Assembly (NCBI GenBank): GCA_964566135.1
Contig: CAZMHM010000001.1
Location: forward strand, 5,829 to 69,828
From: an uncultured Candidatus Saccharibacteria bacterium
GTDB taxonomy: Bacteria > Patescibacteriota > Saccharimonadia > Saccharimonadales > CAIOMD01
DNA: 64,000 bases
Reading direction: 5' to 3'
Below are positions 253 to 18,832 of this stretch, piece after piece. Under the pieces are notes generated by a model. That model was not told where the DNA came from and did not search any database. It saw only the letters and a list, made by a program, of their open reading frames with translations. The first letter of the stretch is position 1; each line of letters begins with the position of its first letter. Both the position numbers and the translations under genes were made by a program.

Positions 253-1407
253 ATGTCGGAGCAAAACAAACAAAGTTACGCTTTTGATTTTCCACCTATG
301 CCTGCGCTATCGGCTACTGAGAGTGCCGAAGTAAAAAAAGAGCGCAAATGGCCACGCCGGCTTGCGAAATCTATCTGTGCAGTTGCAATCGGGCTTGCAG
401 TCATAGCCCCACAAGTGCACAAAGTCGACACAATTGTTTCAGCGGAGCGGTACCAGCAAGACGAAGTTGAAATATTACTTGCTGCCGGAGCCGAAACGCT
501 TCCAAAGGGTGGCACAGAGTGGCTGGTGTTTGGAGGTTACGGCCAAAAGTACAGCACAAACGCCGCCCAAGAACTTTTTAATGCCTTAGGTAGCAAAGAA
601 GTAGTAGCCTCTGTTAAATACCCGAACCAAGGGTTTACGATCGACGAGCTAGCAACCTATGTACATGCATACATGAAACAGAGGGGTATGAGTAAGCTTA
701 ATGTTGCTGGGGTAAGTTTGGGTACGCCGACAGCGCTGATGACGCTTGGATATATCCAGGAGCATGCCAATAATCCATTAGCTCAGTATCAAGACATTGC
801 GTTTAGTCCACGTGGCCTTGCGCTCCGTAAACTACCAGAAATCGGCTATTTTATAGCGTATTCATCACCGGCAGATGTACAAGACGCATCACAAGGATAT
901 ATCGCCCAAACAATCGTCTCCAGAATCAAAGGCACAGGTTATGCGCCTGGTATGATTGATAAGTTAATTGTCTCTGGCTTTGATGGTGAGGGGGATGGTT
1001 TGAAATCGATAAATATACTAAACCCCGCCGAATGGCTGAAGCAACAACACAATAATTTAGAAGAAACGTTTAATGACACGCCAACGTTAATGGTTTTGTC
1101 ACAAATGGAAATTGCTGCCGAATTTAATGTGGATGAGCAATGGGAAAAATGGCGGTTAGTGCTTTCGCCTGATTCTTACTTTGGCTATTTTTATCCGTCA
1201 AAGGCCGACCCAACGGTTAATGATGCCGGTGCATACCGTAAATACGAAGTAGCACTCAAGCATTTAGATGTGCCAACAGCCTATGTGCCAACAGGCGAAC
1301 CGGGCCATGCCAATACTGTCGCAACCGCATCGGCGGCTAGTAAGTGGATTGCAATCGATACGGCAGCACTGCCAAGCATTGTGCTCAAACCACATGTCTC
1401 GAATTAA
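253..1407 (+). CDS. Hypothetical membrane-anchored protein, possible alpha/beta-hydrolase fold
   Basis: 384-aa ORF with an N-terminal TM helix (ICAVAIGLAVIAP) and a GVSLG nucleophile-elbow-like motif. No clearer family signature seen. Confidence 0.4.
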   Translation: MSEQNKQSYAFDFPPMPALSATESAEVKKERKWPRRLAKSICAVAIGLAVIAPQVHKVDTIVSAERYQQDEVEILLAAGAETLPKGGTEWLVFGGYGQKYSTNAAQELFNALGSKEVVASVKYPNQGFTIDELATYVHAYMKQRGMSKLNVAGVSLGTPTALMTLGYIQEHANNPLAQYQDIAFSPRGLALRKLPEIGYFIAYSSPADVQDASQGYIAQTIVSRIKGTGYAPGMIDKLIVSGFDGEGDGLKSINILNPAEWLKQQHNNLEETFNDTPTLMVLSQMEIAAEFNVDEQWEKWRLVLSPDSYFGYFYPSKADPTVNDAGAYRKYEVALKHLDVPTAYVPTGEPGHANTVATASAASKWIAIDTAALPSIVLKPHVSN

Positions 1408-13709: not shown

Positions 13710-13787
13710 CGGCTATTGCGTATAGTGGTGCAGAATGGTTCAATATAACCATAAGTAGTAATATTGACAATATACTTGGGTAGGTAT

Positions 13788-16139
13788 ATGGCAAAAAGCG
13801 AAAAGGGGAGACATATTGTGGAACCACAAATTCAAGAACCGAACCAGCAAGCGGTTCCGGTTGTGCGCGAACTAGATTCTCAACAAGTGTTGCAACAGAC
13901 AGCAGTCGAGCAAAAACAGACTTTATGGGGGAAGCTTACCAATCATAGACATTTTTCATTAGTAGTATTAGCCTTTGGGTTCGCGCTCATTGGTGGCATT
14001 TTTGTATTTGGCAGCAAGGCAAGTTCGATTAATGGTCTAACTGCAACATACTTCAAAAATACTACCCTTAGCGGCACAGGTACTACACAAATCGACCCAA
14101 CAATTAATTTTAACTGGGCAGCCAAGGCGCCCCTTGCGGGCTTCCCCGTAGATGGCTTCAGCGTGCGCTGGACAGGGCAAGTTAAGACGGCAACAGCCGG
14201 CCAATATAAGTTCATGACTAGTTCTGATGACGGTATCCGCCTATGGGTTAATAATCAATTACTCGTTGACAACTGGACGCAACACGCCCCAACCACAAAT
14301 GTTGGCAGTATAGCGTTACCAGCAAATTCATATTTCGATATTAAGGTTGAGTATTTCGAAAATACGGGGGGTGCCGTTGCTAAGTTGAGCTGGACGCGCC
14401 CTGATGGTGTGACAGAAGTGATACCAGTGACGTCTTTGTACAACGCTGCTCAGCAGCCAAGTGGCCCGCAGAGTGTTACGGCAACTCCGGGCGATAAAAC
14501 TGCGACCATGAACTGGCAGCCATCCGCAAATCAGGGTAGCAGTGCAATTACAGGCTATCGCGTAACGCGCGTTACCGGTGATAGCGCTGCCCCACAGCCA
14601 TGGACAACCGTTGTGCCCGCAACGACACGTTCGCAGCAATTTACCTACCTGCAAAACGGTGTTACCTATACGTTTAGTGTTGCCGCAATTAATAGCGCGG
14701 GCGAAGGCCCTGCGACAACCGTAACGGCGACTCCGGTAGCTGGTGCGGTAGCAGCCCCAGCAACCGGCACGAGTATTGTGTCGGTTTCATCGCCATTTAC
14801 TGTCACAAACAATCCCTACAATCAGGATACTGAATACCGCGTAACATCATCACTCAGACAAGCGAATGCGGCTAATCCACTGCCGTTTGACATGCCTGCA
14901 CGTGCAACCTTGGCAGCCTCTGCTAAAAAAGCAGTAGCCCACTACTTCCCGCAGTTCCCAATAAGTGTTGATAACGCCGATCCATCAACCGATTACTATG
15001 CACGCAACTGGCTTGCCGCTGGTGGCGAGGGCGGAAAGCATGTGGCATACGGTGGTTACCTACGTGACAGGCCGTTAGGTCGCGCACCGCTTAGCGGTGA
15101 CTGGCAGTTAGCTGATGTAACAACCGAGTCTAAATGGGCACGTGATGCTGGCCTTGACGCATTCTTGGTTGATACGTTAGGCTGGAGCACCACAAGTGCT
15201 AATTATCAGCGTGGACGCAAGATATTTGATGGCGCGAAAAACCTCGGCGATAGCACATTTAAGGTTGCTTACATGGTGGATACAGACATAGTATCGGGCA
15301 CCGATTATGCAACCGCTGCCGCTCGTATCGCAGATGCCTATAACTCCGGTTCGTATATGACGGTTAACGGTAAGCTCGTCGTATCTGCTTATCGCCCAGA
15401 GGGAAATTCAGCGCCAAGCTTCTGGCAAAATATTGATACTACGCTCAAAAATACCTACAAGCTACCCGGCATGGTGTTTGTGCCTTGCTATTCAAGTAAC
15501 TGGAACGCGCATACTACCTTTGATGCGATTACCTATGCAATGGGTGTTTGGACTATCGGTAATACTCCCGGCGTTAACTCTGCAACCTGGAACAACACTG
15601 CAACATCGGCCGGAAAGTTGTTTATGCAGCCAATTGCCTTTGGTGATAGTCGGCCCCGTAGTGGTGTGTTTGACGAGCAACAGGGCTTACTAACACTTCG
15701 CGACCAGTGGCTAACTGCCATCAATAACGATGTCGATTGGGTGCAGTACCGAACCTGGAGTGACTTTAGCGAAGGTGCTCAAATGATTCCTTCTCGCAAC
15801 CACGGCTACTCGTATCTCGATGTGAGTGCGTACTACTTGGCACGCTGGAAAACTGGCACGTACCCAACCATCAAGCGCGATGCATTATATCTTAGCCATC
15901 GTATATCCAACTGGGATAATCACAACACGCAAGTTTCGCAAACCACATGGCAAAATCCTCGTAGCGCAAGCACACACCCTGGCCAAAATATTGTCGATGT
16001 TATGTCGTTCTTAACAGCCCCAGGCAAAGTAACAGTAAAGGTTGGCGTCAACACGTATACCTACGATGCTCCGCAGGGTGTATTTAACAAGCAGTTCCCG
16101 CTTGCTAACGGCCAAGTTTCAGCCAGCTTAAGTAGATAA
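13788..16139 (+). CDS. Secreted PA14 + fibronectin-III + GH71-like (endo-alpha-1,3-glucanase family) glycosyl hydrolase
   Basis: TM anchor, then a PA14-like segment (GLTATYFKNTTLSG...FSVRWTGQV...DDGIRLWVNNQLLVDNW), an FN3 segment (PQSVTATPGDKTATMNWQPS) and a C-terminal domain (VAHYFPQFPIS...DAFLVDTLGW) resembling GH71. The start is taken at the ATG at 13788. Confidence 0.55.
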   Translation: MAKSEKGRHIVEPQIQEPNQQAVPVVRELDSQQVLQQTAVEQKQTLWGKLTNHRHFSLVVLAFGFALIGGIFVFGSKASSINGLTATYFKNTTLSGTGTTQIDPTINFNWAAKAPLAGFPVDGFSVRWTGQVKTATAGQYKFMTSSDDGIRLWVNNQLLVDNWTQHAPTTNVGSIALPANSYFDIKVEYFENTGGAVAKLSWTRPDGVTEVIPVTSLYNAAQQPSGPQSVTATPGDKTATMNWQPSANQGSSAITGYRVTRVTGDSAAPQPWTTVVPATTRSQQFTYLQNGVTYTFSVAAINSAGEGPATTVTATPVAGAVAAPATGTSIVSVSSPFTVTNNPYNQDTEYRVTSSLRQANAANPLPFDMPARATLAASAKKAVAHYFPQFPISVDNADPSTDYYARNWLAAGGEGGKHVAYGGYLRDRPLGRAPLSGDWQLADVTTESKWARDAGLDAFLVDTLGWSTTSANYQRGRKIFDGAKNLGDSTFKVAYMVDTDIVSGTDYATAAARIADAYNSGSYMTVNGKLVVSAYRPEGNSAPSFWQNIDTTLKNTYKLPGMVFVPCYSSNWNAHTTFDAITYAMGVWTIGNTPGVNSATWNNTATSAGKLFMQPIAFGDSRPRSGVFDEQQGLLTLRDQWLTAINNDVDWVQYRTWSDFSEGAQMIPSRNHGYSYLDVSAYYLARWKTGTYPTIKRDALYLSHRISNWDNHNTQVSQTTWQNPRSASTHPGQNIVDVMSFLTAPGKVTVKVGVNTYTYDAPQGVFNKQFPLANGQVSASLSR

Positions 16140-16141
16140 AT

Positions 16142-16570
16142 ATGCGCCCAGAGTCTATAACAGATAAACTAGCTGTTTATGCAGCGCTTGGATTAACGCT
16201 GTTTATGATAGTGTTCCAGTTTCTATTGGCTATTGGCTTACCGCTGGGTCATGCCGCATGGGGTGGTAAATATGAAGTTTTACCGACTAATTTTAGGGTA
16301 GGTAGCGCGGTTAACGTCATTATATATTTTTGGATTGGTGCTTGTGTGCTCAGGGCTTCTGGGCTTGCGCTTAAATCTATTAACTTTAAAATTGCGCGTG
16401 TTACGTTGTATATTTTTGGTTCGTTTTTAGTGCTAGGAGTACTTATGAACTTGGCGTCGCCGAGTCACTGGGAACGCTATCTAATGGCGCCAACAGCCCT
16501 AGCGTTTTGCTTAAGCACCCTGCATATTGCGTACCATTCCGGCAAGCTTACTAAGGCCAAAAAAGCATAA
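16142..16570 (+). CDS. Hypothetical 4-TM membrane protein
   Basis: 142 aa and strongly hydrophobic. It starts 2 nt after the hydrolase stop. Confidence 0.5.
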   Translation: MRPESITDKLAVYAALGLTLFMIVFQFLLAIGLPLGHAAWGGKYEVLPTNFRVGSAVNVIIYFWIGACVLRASGLALKSINFKIARVTLYIFGSFLVLGVLMNLASPSHWERYLMAPTALAFCLSTLHIAYHSGKLTKAKKA

Positions 16571-16599
16571 CCATATCTGTTAATTCTTATTAATATTTC

Positions 16600-16628
16600 T
16601 TGCACATCATAGGCGATATAGCTATTAT
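16600..16628 (+). promoter_or_regulatory. Sigma70-like promoter, TTGCAC-17 nt-TATTAT, for the GC-rich RNA/RT unit
   Basis: TTGCAC at 16600-16605 and TATTAT at 16623-16628 with a 17-nt spacer. The predicted start near 16635 lies 3 nt before the 5' arm of the long-range helix. Confidence 0.5.
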
Positions 16629-16634
16629 TGACTC

Positions 16635-17125
16635 AGCCACGGTACACCGTGGGCCTTGGGGCTAGATTTTGTACGGCGCGGGCAACCGTGCTCGAGTTGC
16701 TAGTTACGACTAGTACTCAAAAATGTCGTCGCTATGGTGGCTCGGCTTGGTCGTTTGCACTCGCTTGCGAGGGCTACGTCCTGCCTCTGCGGGTGGTCCT
16801 GTTTTCTGGGGCGCTCGCTCTTCACCTCTCTGTGGCTCGCACCGTCATCGTCGCGCGCAAGCGCGGTGGTGGGCGAGCTCGGAGCCGTCTTGATGCGCGC
16901 GTACGTCTGAGTGACCAGGCGCACGTGTCTCGATGGCGTGTGGACGCGTTCTGTTGCGCACACACGGCGACGGCACGTCGGCACTTGCGACCGCGACTCT
17001 CATGCTGAGTCTGTGGCTCGCTCCGACGACGATGGTGGTTACCAAACGGTGTGGCAAAGTATGACCCAAGGCCCATCGGTAACCGTCGTGTTTACGAGTG
17101 GGGTAGGGCGCTTCTGCGCCCGCCC
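16635..17125 (+). ncRNA. GC-rich structured non-coding RNA upstream of the RT (candidate retron msr-msd-like RNA)
   Basis: The ends pair (16638-16660 with 17065-17090, about 20 bp) and G16661 is left unpaired. A nested helix joins 16840-16853 to 17024-17037, and several small hairpins include a GCAA tetraloop at 16852-16865. Every frame gives only junk ORFs, and the composition jump is abrupt. Confidence 0.6.
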
Positions 17126-17141
17126 TGCTCACTCAACCTGT

Positions 17142-18119
17142 ATGACTAATCCTGATAGATTTTATGACCGGTATCGGCAACGCAACGCGAGCCTATTTTT
17201 AGAAGCAGCAAGTACGCTTGGCGAGTTTGCTGATGGCGAACAACCGGTCTTTACCCCGTATATCCCCAAAAGGCAGACACCAGAAAAAACAATTTGGATG
17301 CCAAACCAAGCCATGATTGAAGTGCATGGGCGCCTTAAGAGCGCGCTCGAAATAGAGCGCCCGCTATTTTTAGGCCCATCATATGGTGGTATTACTGGTG
17401 GCTCGCCTGCTCGTAACATTGCACCTCATACGCCAAACAGATATTTTTATCAGCTTGATTTTGCCAATGCGTACAGCCAAGTAGACGCTGCAAAACTCGC
17501 GCGGCTCATTATTGACGGCCGTGGCACGTATAAAGAAATTGAGGCTGTGCAGGCGGTGCTCGAAACCTATTGTCTTACGCCAACAGGTACCGGTTTAGCA
17601 CGTGGCGGGCCATTATCACCATACTTGTTTAATTTGTACTGCGAAGAGCTCGATTGGGAGCTACAAGGCTATACCGATAGGCGCGGCATCACGTACACCC
17701 GGTATCTCGATGATTTAACGTTCTCGCGGCCAGATAATGGATTCCCCATCCGCGATACTATTACCGCCCCCGAGCGGAGTGATATTCGCGCAATTATCGA
17801 TAACAACGGGCTTACCCTAAACCCTGCAAAAACTCGGGTTAGCGATGTGCATGATGCACCAGTAATAATTACCGGTCTGCAGCTTGATAAAAACGGCCAA
17901 TGGCACATTAAAGATAAAGCCGCTCGCGAAGCCCGAGCTAAACTGCTAGCTCAGCACGGCATGTTTGCTGGCACCTTACTACAAAAACAGGTGCGCGATT
18001 TAGCAGCCGGCTATAAAGGCATGCTAGATGCTGCCGAACATGGCAAAAAGCGCTCAAAAAGTGAGCGCCAATTAGGCGAGCTTGCCGAAAGATTATTAGT
18101 AGAAATTCCAGCACTCTAA
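17142..18119 (+). CDS. Reverse transcriptase, retron-type (325 aa)
   Basis: RT motifs seen: YIPKRQTPEKTIWMP, YFYQLDFANAYSQV, GGPLSPYLFNLYCEELD, YTRYLDDLTFS, LTLNPAKTRV and VIITGLQL (a VTG-like motif). The ATG at 17142 is the first start after the structured RNA; the ORF-track start at 16911 lies inside the ncRNA. Confidence 0.85.
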   Translation: MTNPDRFYDRYRQRNASLFLEAASTLGEFADGEQPVFTPYIPKRQTPEKTIWMPNQAMIEVHGRLKSALEIERPLFLGPSYGGITGGSPARNIAPHTPNRYFYQLDFANAYSQVDAAKLARLIIDGRGTYKEIEAVQAVLETYCLTPTGTGLARGGPLSPYLFNLYCEELDWELQGYTDRRGITYTRYLDDLTFSRPDNGFPIRDTITAPERSDIRAIIDNNGLTLNPAKTRVSDVHDAPVIITGLQLDKNGQWHIKDKAAREARAKLLAQHGMFAGTLLQKQVRDLAAGYKGMLDAAEHGKKRSKSERQLGELAERLLVEIPAL

Positions 18120-18199
18120 CTGCATTGCTTTTCGCTGTTTTCAGCTCATCAGCATGAACATACATTCATGTAAGCAATTTCGGCAAGATAGCTGTGACG

Positions 18200-18227
18200 G
18201 GCGGGGGCAAGCGAACTTGCCCCCGCC
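18200..18227 (-). terminator. GC-rich hairpin without a U-tract, downstream of the 141-aa gene
   Basis: GGCGGGGGCAAG-cgaa-CTTGCCCCCGCC, a perfect 12-bp stem lying 6 nt after the minus-strand stop. No T- or A-run on either side. Confidence 0.5.
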
Positions 18228-18233
18228 GAAGCG

Positions 18234-18659
18234 TCAGATGCTGACGGTCGAGTCAGCCGAGTAGAACGGCTGAAAGTTGCCATAGCGCGTTCTCACCATG
18301 CGGTCGGTGCCAGCGAAGTGCATCCTGAGGATGAGCTCCTTCGAGTTACTGAACTTCCTCAGCCCCTTGGCGTCATAGACGGTTCCGTCGATGTAGTGCT
18401 TGCCGGGGATGGGGGTTCTGGTACCGATGACGAAATCGCGGGAGTGCGGGCCTCGCGGTTCGAGCTGGATGACTCGTTCTTCCACGGTGGCCTGCTCGAA
18501 CCCGAAGCATTCCGCGTTGTCAGGCCGAAGCCCAACCGCGAGCTGTGCATCGAGTCCGTTGACGGTGATGGGCGCTCCTGGAGTCTCACTACCAACGACC
18601 CAAAACCGCACCACGTAGCTGTACGAAGTCTGGGCGTCGATGACCTTGACGGTGTTCAT
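18234..18659 (-). CDS. Hypothetical 141-aa protein in a GC-rich island (orphan)
   Basis: ATG at 18659 with an AAAGG ribosome-binding site and a TATAAT box upstream (plus coordinates ~18720). The product MNTVKVIDAQTSYSYVVRFWVV... has protein-like composition. Four overlapping ORFs in other frames reflect the high GC content. Confidence 0.6.
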   Translation of the reverse strand: MNTVKVIDAQTSYSYVVRFWVVGSETPGAPITVNGLDAQLAVGLRPDNAECFGFEQATVEERVIQLEPRGPHSRDFVIGTRTPIPGKHYIDGTVYDAKGLRKFSNSKELILRMHFAGTDRMVRTRYGNFQPFYSADSTVSI

Positions 18660-18832
18660 GCGATCACGACCTTTGCTATCTTGTCGAAGGTACCTGGGGC
18701 TATGTAGCCTCAAGCTAAGTATATTATAGCATAAGAACAATGAAAAAGCAATATTTGGTATCTGTTACGCACTAGTTCTACGGCATAATATTGCCAAAAT
18801 AGCAATTATTCTAAAATAACACCTAAAAAGTG

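Follow-up and report, generated by a model that had tools for sequence, protein, structure and literature searches.

A GC-rich orphan gene of Saccharibacteria in a putative exchangeable cassette with a hammerhead ribozyme, convergent on a retron-type reverse transcriptase

Prokaryotic hammerhead ribozymes often flank small, non-conserved open reading frames (ORFs), where their role is open and a part in 3′ untranslated region (3′UTR) or mRNA processing has been proposed (PMC6155905, PMC6765202); the hammerhead surveys of Perreault, Jimenez and De la Pena are considered here in the form in which these two reviews relay them. Here, we analyze ORF141, a small gene on the minus strand of a 64,000-nucleotide stretch of DNA (hereafter, the window) from an uncultured Candidatus Saccharibacteria bacterium (GenBank assembly GCA_964566135.1, contig CAZMHM010000001.1, positions 5,829 to 69,828), which converges on a gene for a retron-type reverse transcriptase (RT). 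In the reading we favor, at a probability of roughly 0.6, ORF141 sits in a self-contained, exchangeable cassette whose transcript obtains its 3′ end from a hammerhead ribozyme and folds into a panhandle mRNA, with the RT gene kept insulated.

The architecture, i.e. a hammerhead-associated small ORF, is of a known kind: as in other prokaryotes and phages, a canonical type III ribozyme lies beside a small orphan ORF, and arrays of at least two such units occur (L003, L009, L018 and L038; comparison loci carry L numbers throughout). Unlike the surveyed hammerheads, however, the present ones have a stem III specific to bacteria of the candidate phyla radiation (CPR), a covarying helix that involves the 5′UTR, a hairpin between ORF and ribozyme, and a retron-type RT as neighbor. 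The covarying 5′–3′ helix and the recurrent RT neighborhood are what this family adds, and we did not find them described, nor the stem III subfamily or the interposed family-specific hairpin: searches of the accessible literature for hammerheads together with retrons, Saccharibacteria or CPR returned nothing relevant, the closing helix, CPR hammerheads and a link to retrons being unreported there.

Similar to phage 'morons', the cassette is a single small gene of odd composition that lies between conserved genes with its own putative promoter and 3′-end signal, and both its presence and its alleles vary among close relatives. It differs from morons in lying in a bacterial chromosome beside the S10 ribosomal operon, with no recognizable prophage, and in that a ribozyme, and not a terminator, would make its 3′ end. 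Type I toxin mRNAs of the hok/sok kind are inhibited by fold-back pairing between their 5′ and 3′ ends and activated by 3′ processing. The ORF141 mRNA would share such long-range pairing and a defined (here, predicted) 3′ processing event, but its product is a soluble-looking protein of 141 aa instead of a small hydrophobic peptide, its Shine-Dalgarno sequence is unpaired in the predicted fold, and no antisense RNA gene was identified. As in retrons, the neighboring RT scores best against retron models, a putative RNA closed by inverted repeats lies upstream of it, and the pairing of the cassette ends resembles a1/a2 repeats; unlike in retrons, the cassette occupies the opposite strand, has its own putative promoter, codes for a protein and occurs without an RT, and this RT clade has no conserved effector. 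Retrozymes and Penelope-like elements likewise associate type III hammerheads physically with reverse transcription functions, yet they carry two ribozymes per unit and give rise to circular non-coding RNA at high copy number, as opposed to a single ribozyme, a coding sequence, a promoter and 1–3 copies here. A retrozyme-like circular-RNA element was rejected for the ORF141 locus, since the 64-kb window holds one hammerhead and no second one was found. Ribozymes other than the hammerhead were sought with Rfam models between 16500 and 19000 at E values up to 10; none was detected, and the idea of a 5′ ribozyme that could allow circularization was dropped.

The hammerhead ribozyme and the closing helix

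Past a GC-rich hairpin that follows ORF141, the minus strand reads ...CUAUCUUGCCGAA AUUGCUUA / CAUGAAUGUAUGUUCAUG CUGAUGAG CUGAAAACAG CGAAA AGCAAU, with the slash marking the predicted cut of a hammerhead ribozyme (Table 1). Its catalytic core is intact, comprising CUGAUGA, GAAA and the UUA that precedes the cut site. The Rfam model Hammerhead_3 (RF00008) matched positions 18124-18178(−) with 35.6 bits (E = 2.3e-5), and a covariance model of the subfamily, built without the window sequence, returned the ribozyme as its sole match in 64 kb (78.2 bits, E = 1.6e-20). Across the 21 distinct relatives that were collected, the core is invariant apart from N7 (U or C) and one change of C11.1 to U in L032. 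Covariation was assessed on the 14 distinct ribozymes of equal length: 95% of the alignment cells are paired, double changes occur in 9 of 17 base pairs, and the score of 0.538 compares with 0.204 for shuffled alignments (0/500) and no more than 0.123 for slid controls. Judged by its core, by three helices of which stems I and II are capped and stem III is open, and by covariation, the element is a complete type III ribozyme.

Immediately upstream of stem III lies the 'UUGUC box', complementary over 13-14 nt to a 'GACAA box' in the 5′UTR. Both the minimum-free-energy and the centroid fold of the cleaved transcript (z = −4.9) contain the resulting closing helix, which leaves the Shine-Dalgarno sequence unpaired. 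GACAA/UUGUC pairing recurs in cassettes with unrelated ORFs, and in those with a closing helix the UUGUC box ends 0–2 nt ahead of stem III. The extensions of the boxes vary with complementarity kept, as in GATAG/CTATC, GCTA/TAGC, GGCAAAC/GTTTGCT, CTCGTTC/GAACGAG, GTATGGG/CCCATAC and, on the outer side, CATC/GATG. For 11 cassettes from 8 ORF families, pairing holds in 84% of the cells, double changes occur in 10 of the 16 base pairs, and the covariation score is 0.492, against 0.151 for shuffles (0/500) and at most 0.081 for slid controls. At the level of sequence comparison, these data show that the closing helix exists and covaries.

Table 1. Window positions of the elements of the ORF141 cassette and of the adjoining reverse transcriptase module
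Feature	Position	Strand	Basis or detail
Weak −35-like TTGCTT	18746-18751	−	17 nt upstream of the −10
Extended −10 promoter element TGCTATAAT	18723..18731	−	Direct sequence reading; activity putative
Perfect TATAAT of the −10 element	18723-18728	−	TGC upstream (extended −10)
5′ strand of closing helix, 'GACAA box', UUCGACAAGAUAGC	18675..18688	−	Inverted repeat I13; ends right before AAAGG
Shine-Dalgarno AAAGG	18670-18674	−	10 nt ahead of ATG
ORF141 protein-coding gene, 141 aa	18234..18659	−	Translation starts MNTVKVIDAQTSYSYVVRFWVV
Family-specific GC hairpin, 12 bp, UUCG loop, no U-tract	18200..18227	−	Perfect inverted repeat I19
Hairpin arms	18200-18211/18216-18227	−	Loop TTCG; 6 nt past ORF141 stop codon
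3′ strand of closing helix, 'UUGUC box', GCUAUCUUGCCGAA	18179..18192	−	Inverted repeat I13; abuts stem III
Type III hammerhead ribozyme	18123..18180	−	Rfam RF00008 and subfamily covariance model; self-cleavage predicted
Hammerhead stem I	18165-18170/18153-18158	−	
Hammerhead stem II	18142-18145/18134-18137	−	
Hammerhead stem III	18172-18178/18124-18130	−	
Core motif CUGAUGA	18146-18152	−	
Predicted cut	Between A18171 and C18170	−	
Convergent retron-type RT gene	17142..18119	+	Pfam RVT_1 8e-14; PADLOC RT_II-A 3.2e-28
GC-rich (62%) RNA-like segment upstream of RT, ~450 nt (404 nt closed by the repeat)	16639..17086	+	22-nt inverted repeat 16639-16660/17065-17086
Promoter-like TGCACA-N16-TATTAT	16601-16628	+	Ahead of the RNA-like segment

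A preliminary description of this DNA had reported, within 18195-18760, a GC-rich 141-aa gene of no recognized family, convergent on the RT, with a TATAAT box, an AAAGG ribosome-binding site, and a perfect 12-bp hairpin without U-tract 6 nt past the stop codon. These features all proved real, but that span misses two decisive elements at 18123-18192, i.e. the ribozyme and the 3′ strand of the helix. The TATAAT is kept in homologous loci, where the −10 element reads TGCTATAATATAC in L001-L003, TGTTATTAT in L004 and TGGTATTAT in L009; a consensus promoter scan leaves the ORF141 element unlisted because its −35 is poor. As for the hairpin, which had been taken for a terminator in the style of high-GC Actinobacteria, it has the GC-rich stem of an intrinsic terminator and lacks the U-tract: no T-run follows on either strand, and a terminator scan lists no terminator-like site there. 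The hammerhead lies 55 nt further on, and it is most likely the ribozyme, rather than the hairpin, that makes the 3′ end of the mRNA. From the stop codon to the end of the hairpin, ORF141-family loci agree over ~40 nt except for one substitution in L002, in contrast to the saturated synonymous sites adjacent to this stretch, and other cassette families carry different hairpins at the equivalent position. This invariance suggests a sequence-specific partner.

ORF141, its alleles and its sibling cassettes

The GC content of ORF141 is 59.4%, with 37 G+C among the 60 positions of 18421-18480, whereas the intergenic DNA around it has 40% and the RT gene 49%. G+C at its third codon positions (GC3) amounts to 0.78, more than 5 standard deviations above the 50 ORFs of the window (mean 0.418, standard deviation 0.065), and four ORFs overlap it in other frames, as had been noted before. 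The gene is under purifying selection, the coding-conservation check that the preliminary description had called for: pairwise ratios of nonsynonymous to synonymous substitution rates (dN/dS) range from 0.08 to 0.29 in the sense frame, and variable alignment columns distribute as 48/35/98 over the three codon positions, with position 3 contributing 98 of 181. Only two frames have a ratio of nonsynonymous to synonymous polymorphism (pN/pS) well below 1, the sense frame and the antisense frame that is wobble-matched to it. In the frame of an antisense ORF of 129 aa, the ratio is ~1, and this ORF is therefore a by-product of GC richness and was ruled out as a second gene.

A search of 5.8 billion proteins returned four relatives, all of 141 aa and with identities of 97-65%. 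One more, P0005 (42% identity, 140 aa), emerged when 1.84 billion representatives were scanned exhaustively with HMMER, and two further matches of that scan turned out to be spurious repeat proteins; a profile search with the family added no relatives. Length is thus fixed at 140-141 aa even at 42% identity, and the family amounts to five related clusters, all from Saccharibacteria-type loci. ORF141 has no match in Pfam, PADLOC, PHROGs or PDB sequences. Its AlphaFold2 model is weak, with a predicted local distance difference test (pLDDT) score of 60 that drops below 40 in the C-terminal third; residues 1–90 are predicted to form long beta strands, the remainder is poorly predicted, and a Foldseek search of the model against the PDB gave nothing below E 0.1. 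By eye, the protein has neither a signal peptide nor a membrane segment. From its sequence record, ORF141 is a genuine protein gene, compositionally foreign and an orphan. Our best guess at its role is an accessory conflict gene, for defense or counter-defense, because of its rapid allelic turnover, its location in an island beside a retron-type RT, and a Tad4-like sibling cassette (see below).

The turnover is most evident between L004 and L006. These loci differ at rplC by a synonymous divergence (dS) of 0.028 and have flanks of 98-100% identity, whereas their ORF141-family alleles share 42% identity (dS 1.4). The similarity breaks off right past the 5′ box, is back exactly at the stop codon, stays near 100% through hairpin, 3′ box and ribozyme, and is lost again beyond the ribozyme. 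Since alleles this divergent lie between near-identical flanks, the cassette has been exchanged, and the comparison shows alleles swapped between conserved flanks. The divergent alleles are located at 1344-1769 in L004 and 10001-10423 in L006. A similar disparity separates the window from L001 (dS 0.167 in ORF141 against 0.007 in rplC), and in an alignment of six loci the best-conserved DNA is that flanking ORF141, not ORF141 itself. The neighbors of the cassette also differ among L002, L003, L004 and L009. Hypermutation of ORF141 was ruled out: the spectrum of substitutions between the window and L001 is ordinary, with 13 of 19 being transitions, 15 synonymous, and no specificity for A. Likewise, ORF141 is no target of a diversity-generating retroelement (DGR), as there is no template/variable repeat pair (TR/VR) between the RT-proximal regions and ORF141 and the differences from L001 are not adenine-specific; by eye, the RT lacks the SQ motif of DGR-type enzymes.

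GC3 is high (0.63-0.78) both in alleles that differ by a dS of at least 1 and in unrelated sibling cassettes whose genomes have 34-51% GC, which argues against a fresh, unameliorated import. The GC richness fits a long-lived pool of GC-rich cassettes exchanged among strains. Selection for RNA structure was rejected as its cause, the folding z-score of cassette coding sequences (mean ~−1.9) being equal to that of control genes of the window (~−1.8). A phage or plasmid origin was dropped too, as IMG/VR, INPHARED and PLSDB hold no relative of ORF141; the ribozyme pattern was also not found in IMG/VR.

The cassette design extends well beyond ORF141. On the minus strand, the order is extended −10, GACAA box, Shine-Dalgarno sequence, GC3-rich ORF, family hairpin, UUGUC box and hammerhead. 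Scans for the ribozyme pattern, one of species-representative genomes and one of Joint Genome Institute (JGI) metagenomes, located hammerhead copies in metagenome-assembled genomes (MAGs) of Saccharibacteria, Paceibacterota and Minisyncoccales, in L012 (an 'uncultured bacterium' MAG) and in a few unassigned short metagenome contigs. Each copy sits after a small ORF of 57-260 aa; the ORFs are mutually unrelated, most are GC-richer than their own genome, and each is followed by a family-specific hairpin. Stem III of this CPR subfamily is AAAUYGCUU/AAGCRAUU. Cassettes number 1–3 per genome and form tandem arrays in L003, L009, L018 and L038. As compared across these loci, the design is shown to recur on unrelated small ORFs in CPR bacteria.

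The arrays consist of 2–4 GC-rich small-ORF cassettes with their own promoters (L003 369-2522; L018 6417-7814; L009 417-1775; L038 187-884). In L003, the ORF91 cassette has kept the hairpin and the closing helix and lost the hammerhead, which its homolog in L032 (ORF110, 78% identical) retains. At L034, an ORF of 121 aa (267-632(+), hammerhead at 758-811) matches Pfam Tad4 (3.9e-19) and phrog_9822. Tad4 is an inhibitor of type I Thoeris, and the match hints that such cassettes carry anti-defense genes. The remaining cassette ORFs gave no match.

The convergent reverse transcriptase and its upstream RNA

The RT has its best PADLOC matches among retron RT models and displays, by eye, the motifs YTRYLDD, IITG and N-x-x-x-H. 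Its stop codon is separated from the hammerhead on the opposite strand by 3 nt when measured to the 3′ end of the model match and by 4 nt when measured to stem III. The window and L002 share a tail-to-tail arrangement of cassette and RT, with 3-5 nt between the two. L003 differs in that two further cassettes separate the ORF141-family gene from the RT, which lies 1.2 kb away; the hammerhead of the RT-proximal cassette (ORF116) ends 3 nt from the RT stop there. Altogether, an RT lies within 1.3 kb of the cassette in three of the four resolved loci. The fourth locus with an RT, L031/L032, occupies a different genomic site; two GC-rich cassettes converge on the RT there, and one of them carries a hammerhead. 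Those of L032 encode ORF110 and ORF90, and thus have no cassette family in common with the window.

The association is loose in both directions. The P0005 homolog (L006-L011, and L014 of the same MAG) has promoter, boxes, an identical hairpin and a ribozyme at the same rplC locus, which continues with a second cassette and a homolog of the membrane-protein gene of the window, with no RT or RT-associated RNA. Conversely, relatives of the RT at 32-59% identity lack a hammerhead cassette: L028-L030, L049 and L050 have the RT without a cassette, and in L046 and L048 no hammerhead was found in the ~110-140 nt covered past the RT stop. ORF141 is therefore not consistently co-inherited with the RT clade in the way of a retron effector.

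Upstream of the RT, an A-poor, RNA-like segment is bounded by an inverted repeat and preceded by a promoter-like sequence (Table 1). RT homologs in L032, L030 and L049 have upstream segments of ~390-430 nt that are closed by different yet complementary inverted repeats, and such a segment is present in loci without cassettes as well. None of the msr/msd models matched it. The segment is likely the cognate non-coding RNA (ncRNA) of the RT, and by its recurrence looks like an unusually long one, belonging to a clade of solo retron-like RTs in CPR bacteria. Given the RT-less cassettes, the cassette-less RTs, the unshared cassette families and the RT's own upstream RNA, we read RT and RNA as a self-contained module that shares a variable island with the cassettes and has no need of ORF141.

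Three observations concern the surroundings. RT and upstream RNA (~1.5 kb) are polymorphic for presence and absence, exactly between the membrane-protein gene and the hammerhead 3′ end (window 16142-18119 versus L009 1706-2103 and L014 4465-4913). In L028 (397-2980) and L049 (1540-3050), which encode RT homologs of 43% identity, a convergent gene for a HAD-family hydrolase, apparently decaying in L049, is what fills the space between RT and rplC where the window has its cassette; the contents of this interval are therefore replaceable. On the far side of the module, the product of window positions 13764-16139(+) has 791 aa, PA14 and fibronectin type III domains (Pfam 2e-30 and 2e-12) and 78% identity to a Saccharibacteria MAG protein; it probably serves the epibiont at its surface or in adhesion.

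Proposed mechanism and rival readings

On the reading we favor, transcription from the extended −10 promoter would run through the U-less hairpin, the closing helix would form once the 3′ box emerges, and the hammerhead would then fold and cut after A18171. The released mRNA would carry a 2′,3′-cyclic-phosphate end, with its 5′ and 3′ ends joined in a panhandle and the hairpin just inside, and should in this form be protected from exonucleases. The downstream RNA, with a 5′-OH and antisense to the RT gene, would be uncoupled and presumably degraded, such that the ribozyme would replace an intrinsic terminator between two convergent genes. Cleavage in vivo, stabilization of the mRNA and insulation of the RT gene are what we infer from the architecture; this mechanism would make sense of the ribozyme and the helix, of the lack of a U-tract, and of how closely the convergent genes are packed.

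Several observations weigh against this account. The hammerhead does not reach the RF00008 gathering score of 48.5 and is for that reason missing from a default Rfam scan. Several helix segments were located by searching for complementarity, making the covariation statistic for the helix somewhat circular, and at single loci the helix scores do not beat a permissive shuffle null; as the per-locus scores are individually not significant, the case for the helix rests on its fixed position and covariation. Some cassettes, Paceibacterota-type ones included, have a local hairpin abutting the ribozyme and no long-range helix (L012, L022, L027, L019 and L021). A role as mRNA stabilizer leaves the near-invariance of the hairpin unexplained. 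Finally, the 3-5-nt spacing between RT and ribozyme is kept in three loci whose RTs are 41-44% identical (window versus L002 and L003), which may point to a link closer than insulation alone.

One rival reading is that ORF141 is an effector or accessory partner of the RT, with RT and ncRNA sensing infection and ORF141 executing the response; a missing accessory or effector partner was one of two readings offered in the preliminary description. The adjacency in the window, L002, L003 and L031/L032 speaks for this idea, the more so as cassette and RT are both very rare and their co-occurrence is not due to chance. The co-occurrence of ORF141 homologs with the RT, which had been suggested as a check, holds for the window, L002 and L003, but breaks down at the P0005 locus, where the cassette is kept without RT or RT-associated ncRNA (L009, L006 and L014). 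Together with RTs that lack cassettes, the absence of a cassette family shared by the window and L032, a promoter for each cassette and no PADLOC match for ORF141, this renders an effector role unlikely. Another rival, which we consider improbable, would make the cassette RNA a substrate of the RT: trimmed, end-paired transcripts would be reverse-transcribed, and the cDNA would capture, move or diversify cassettes beside the RT, in the manner of a bacterial analogue of retrozymes or an RNA-based 'integron'. The closing helix does resemble the a1/a2 repeats of retrons, the variable stretch stops precisely at the helix strand on one side and the hairpin on the other, ORF141 has diverged far more than rplC between the window and L001, cassette arrays that differ in content adjoin the 3′ end of the RT, and hammerheads of eukaryotes serve retroelements (PMC6765202). 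However, homology between cassettes takes in the promoter, which an RNA from transcription start site to ribozyme would be missing; the single hammerhead of the window yields no circle; cassettes persist without an RT; the RT has a template-like RNA of its own upstream; and substitutions are of the ordinary kind, with 1–3 cassettes per genome and no sign of proliferation. In a bolder version, retron-type RT and ribozyme-ended cassettes would constitute one RNA-mediated cassette-array system, a prokaryotic counterpart of retrozymes. We deem this very improbable; if true, the sharp limits of the hypervariable segment would follow from it, and the invariance of the hairpin would be that of a recognition site.

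It had also been proposed that ORF141 is a horizontal acquisition from a high-GC donor, plausibly the actinobacterial host, with a hairpin in the donor's terminator style. The GC3 outlier value and the lack of a U-tract are in keeping with a recent import of this sort. Yet neither the 5.8 billion proteins and 1.84 billion representatives nor the phage, plasmid and viral collections contain a homolog outside the five Saccharibacteria-type clusters, GC3 is similarly high in alleles at a dS of at least 1 and in unrelated siblings, and promoter, 5′UTR box and ribozyme are specific to the CPR. A recent actinobacterial import is accordingly very unlikely, and of the proposed acquisition only transfer within a mobile cassette pool stands. 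Least of all do we credit the notion that ORF141 is no gene but an ORF artefact of a GC-rich structured RNA or DNA element. Several long overlapping ORFs and a transcript that, as a whole, folds better than its shuffles could be cited in its favor, but the chance of its being correct is negligible in view of pN/pS values well below 1 in the sense frame compared to ~1 in that of the antisense 129-aa ORF, the length of 140–141 aa conserved down to 42% identity, and coding sequences that fold no better than control genes.

What bacterial and phage hammerheads do is a long-standing question, and the cassette offers a clean, repeatable architecture in which each part can be mutated. If ribozyme and panhandle replace the terminator and stabilize the mRNA, they would represent a distinct route to 3′ ends in ultra-small CPR bacteria, and synthetic biology would gain a part that can be moved between constructs. 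The swapping of alleles, together with the RT nearby, marks a flexible, probably conflict-related region of Saccharibacteria genomes.

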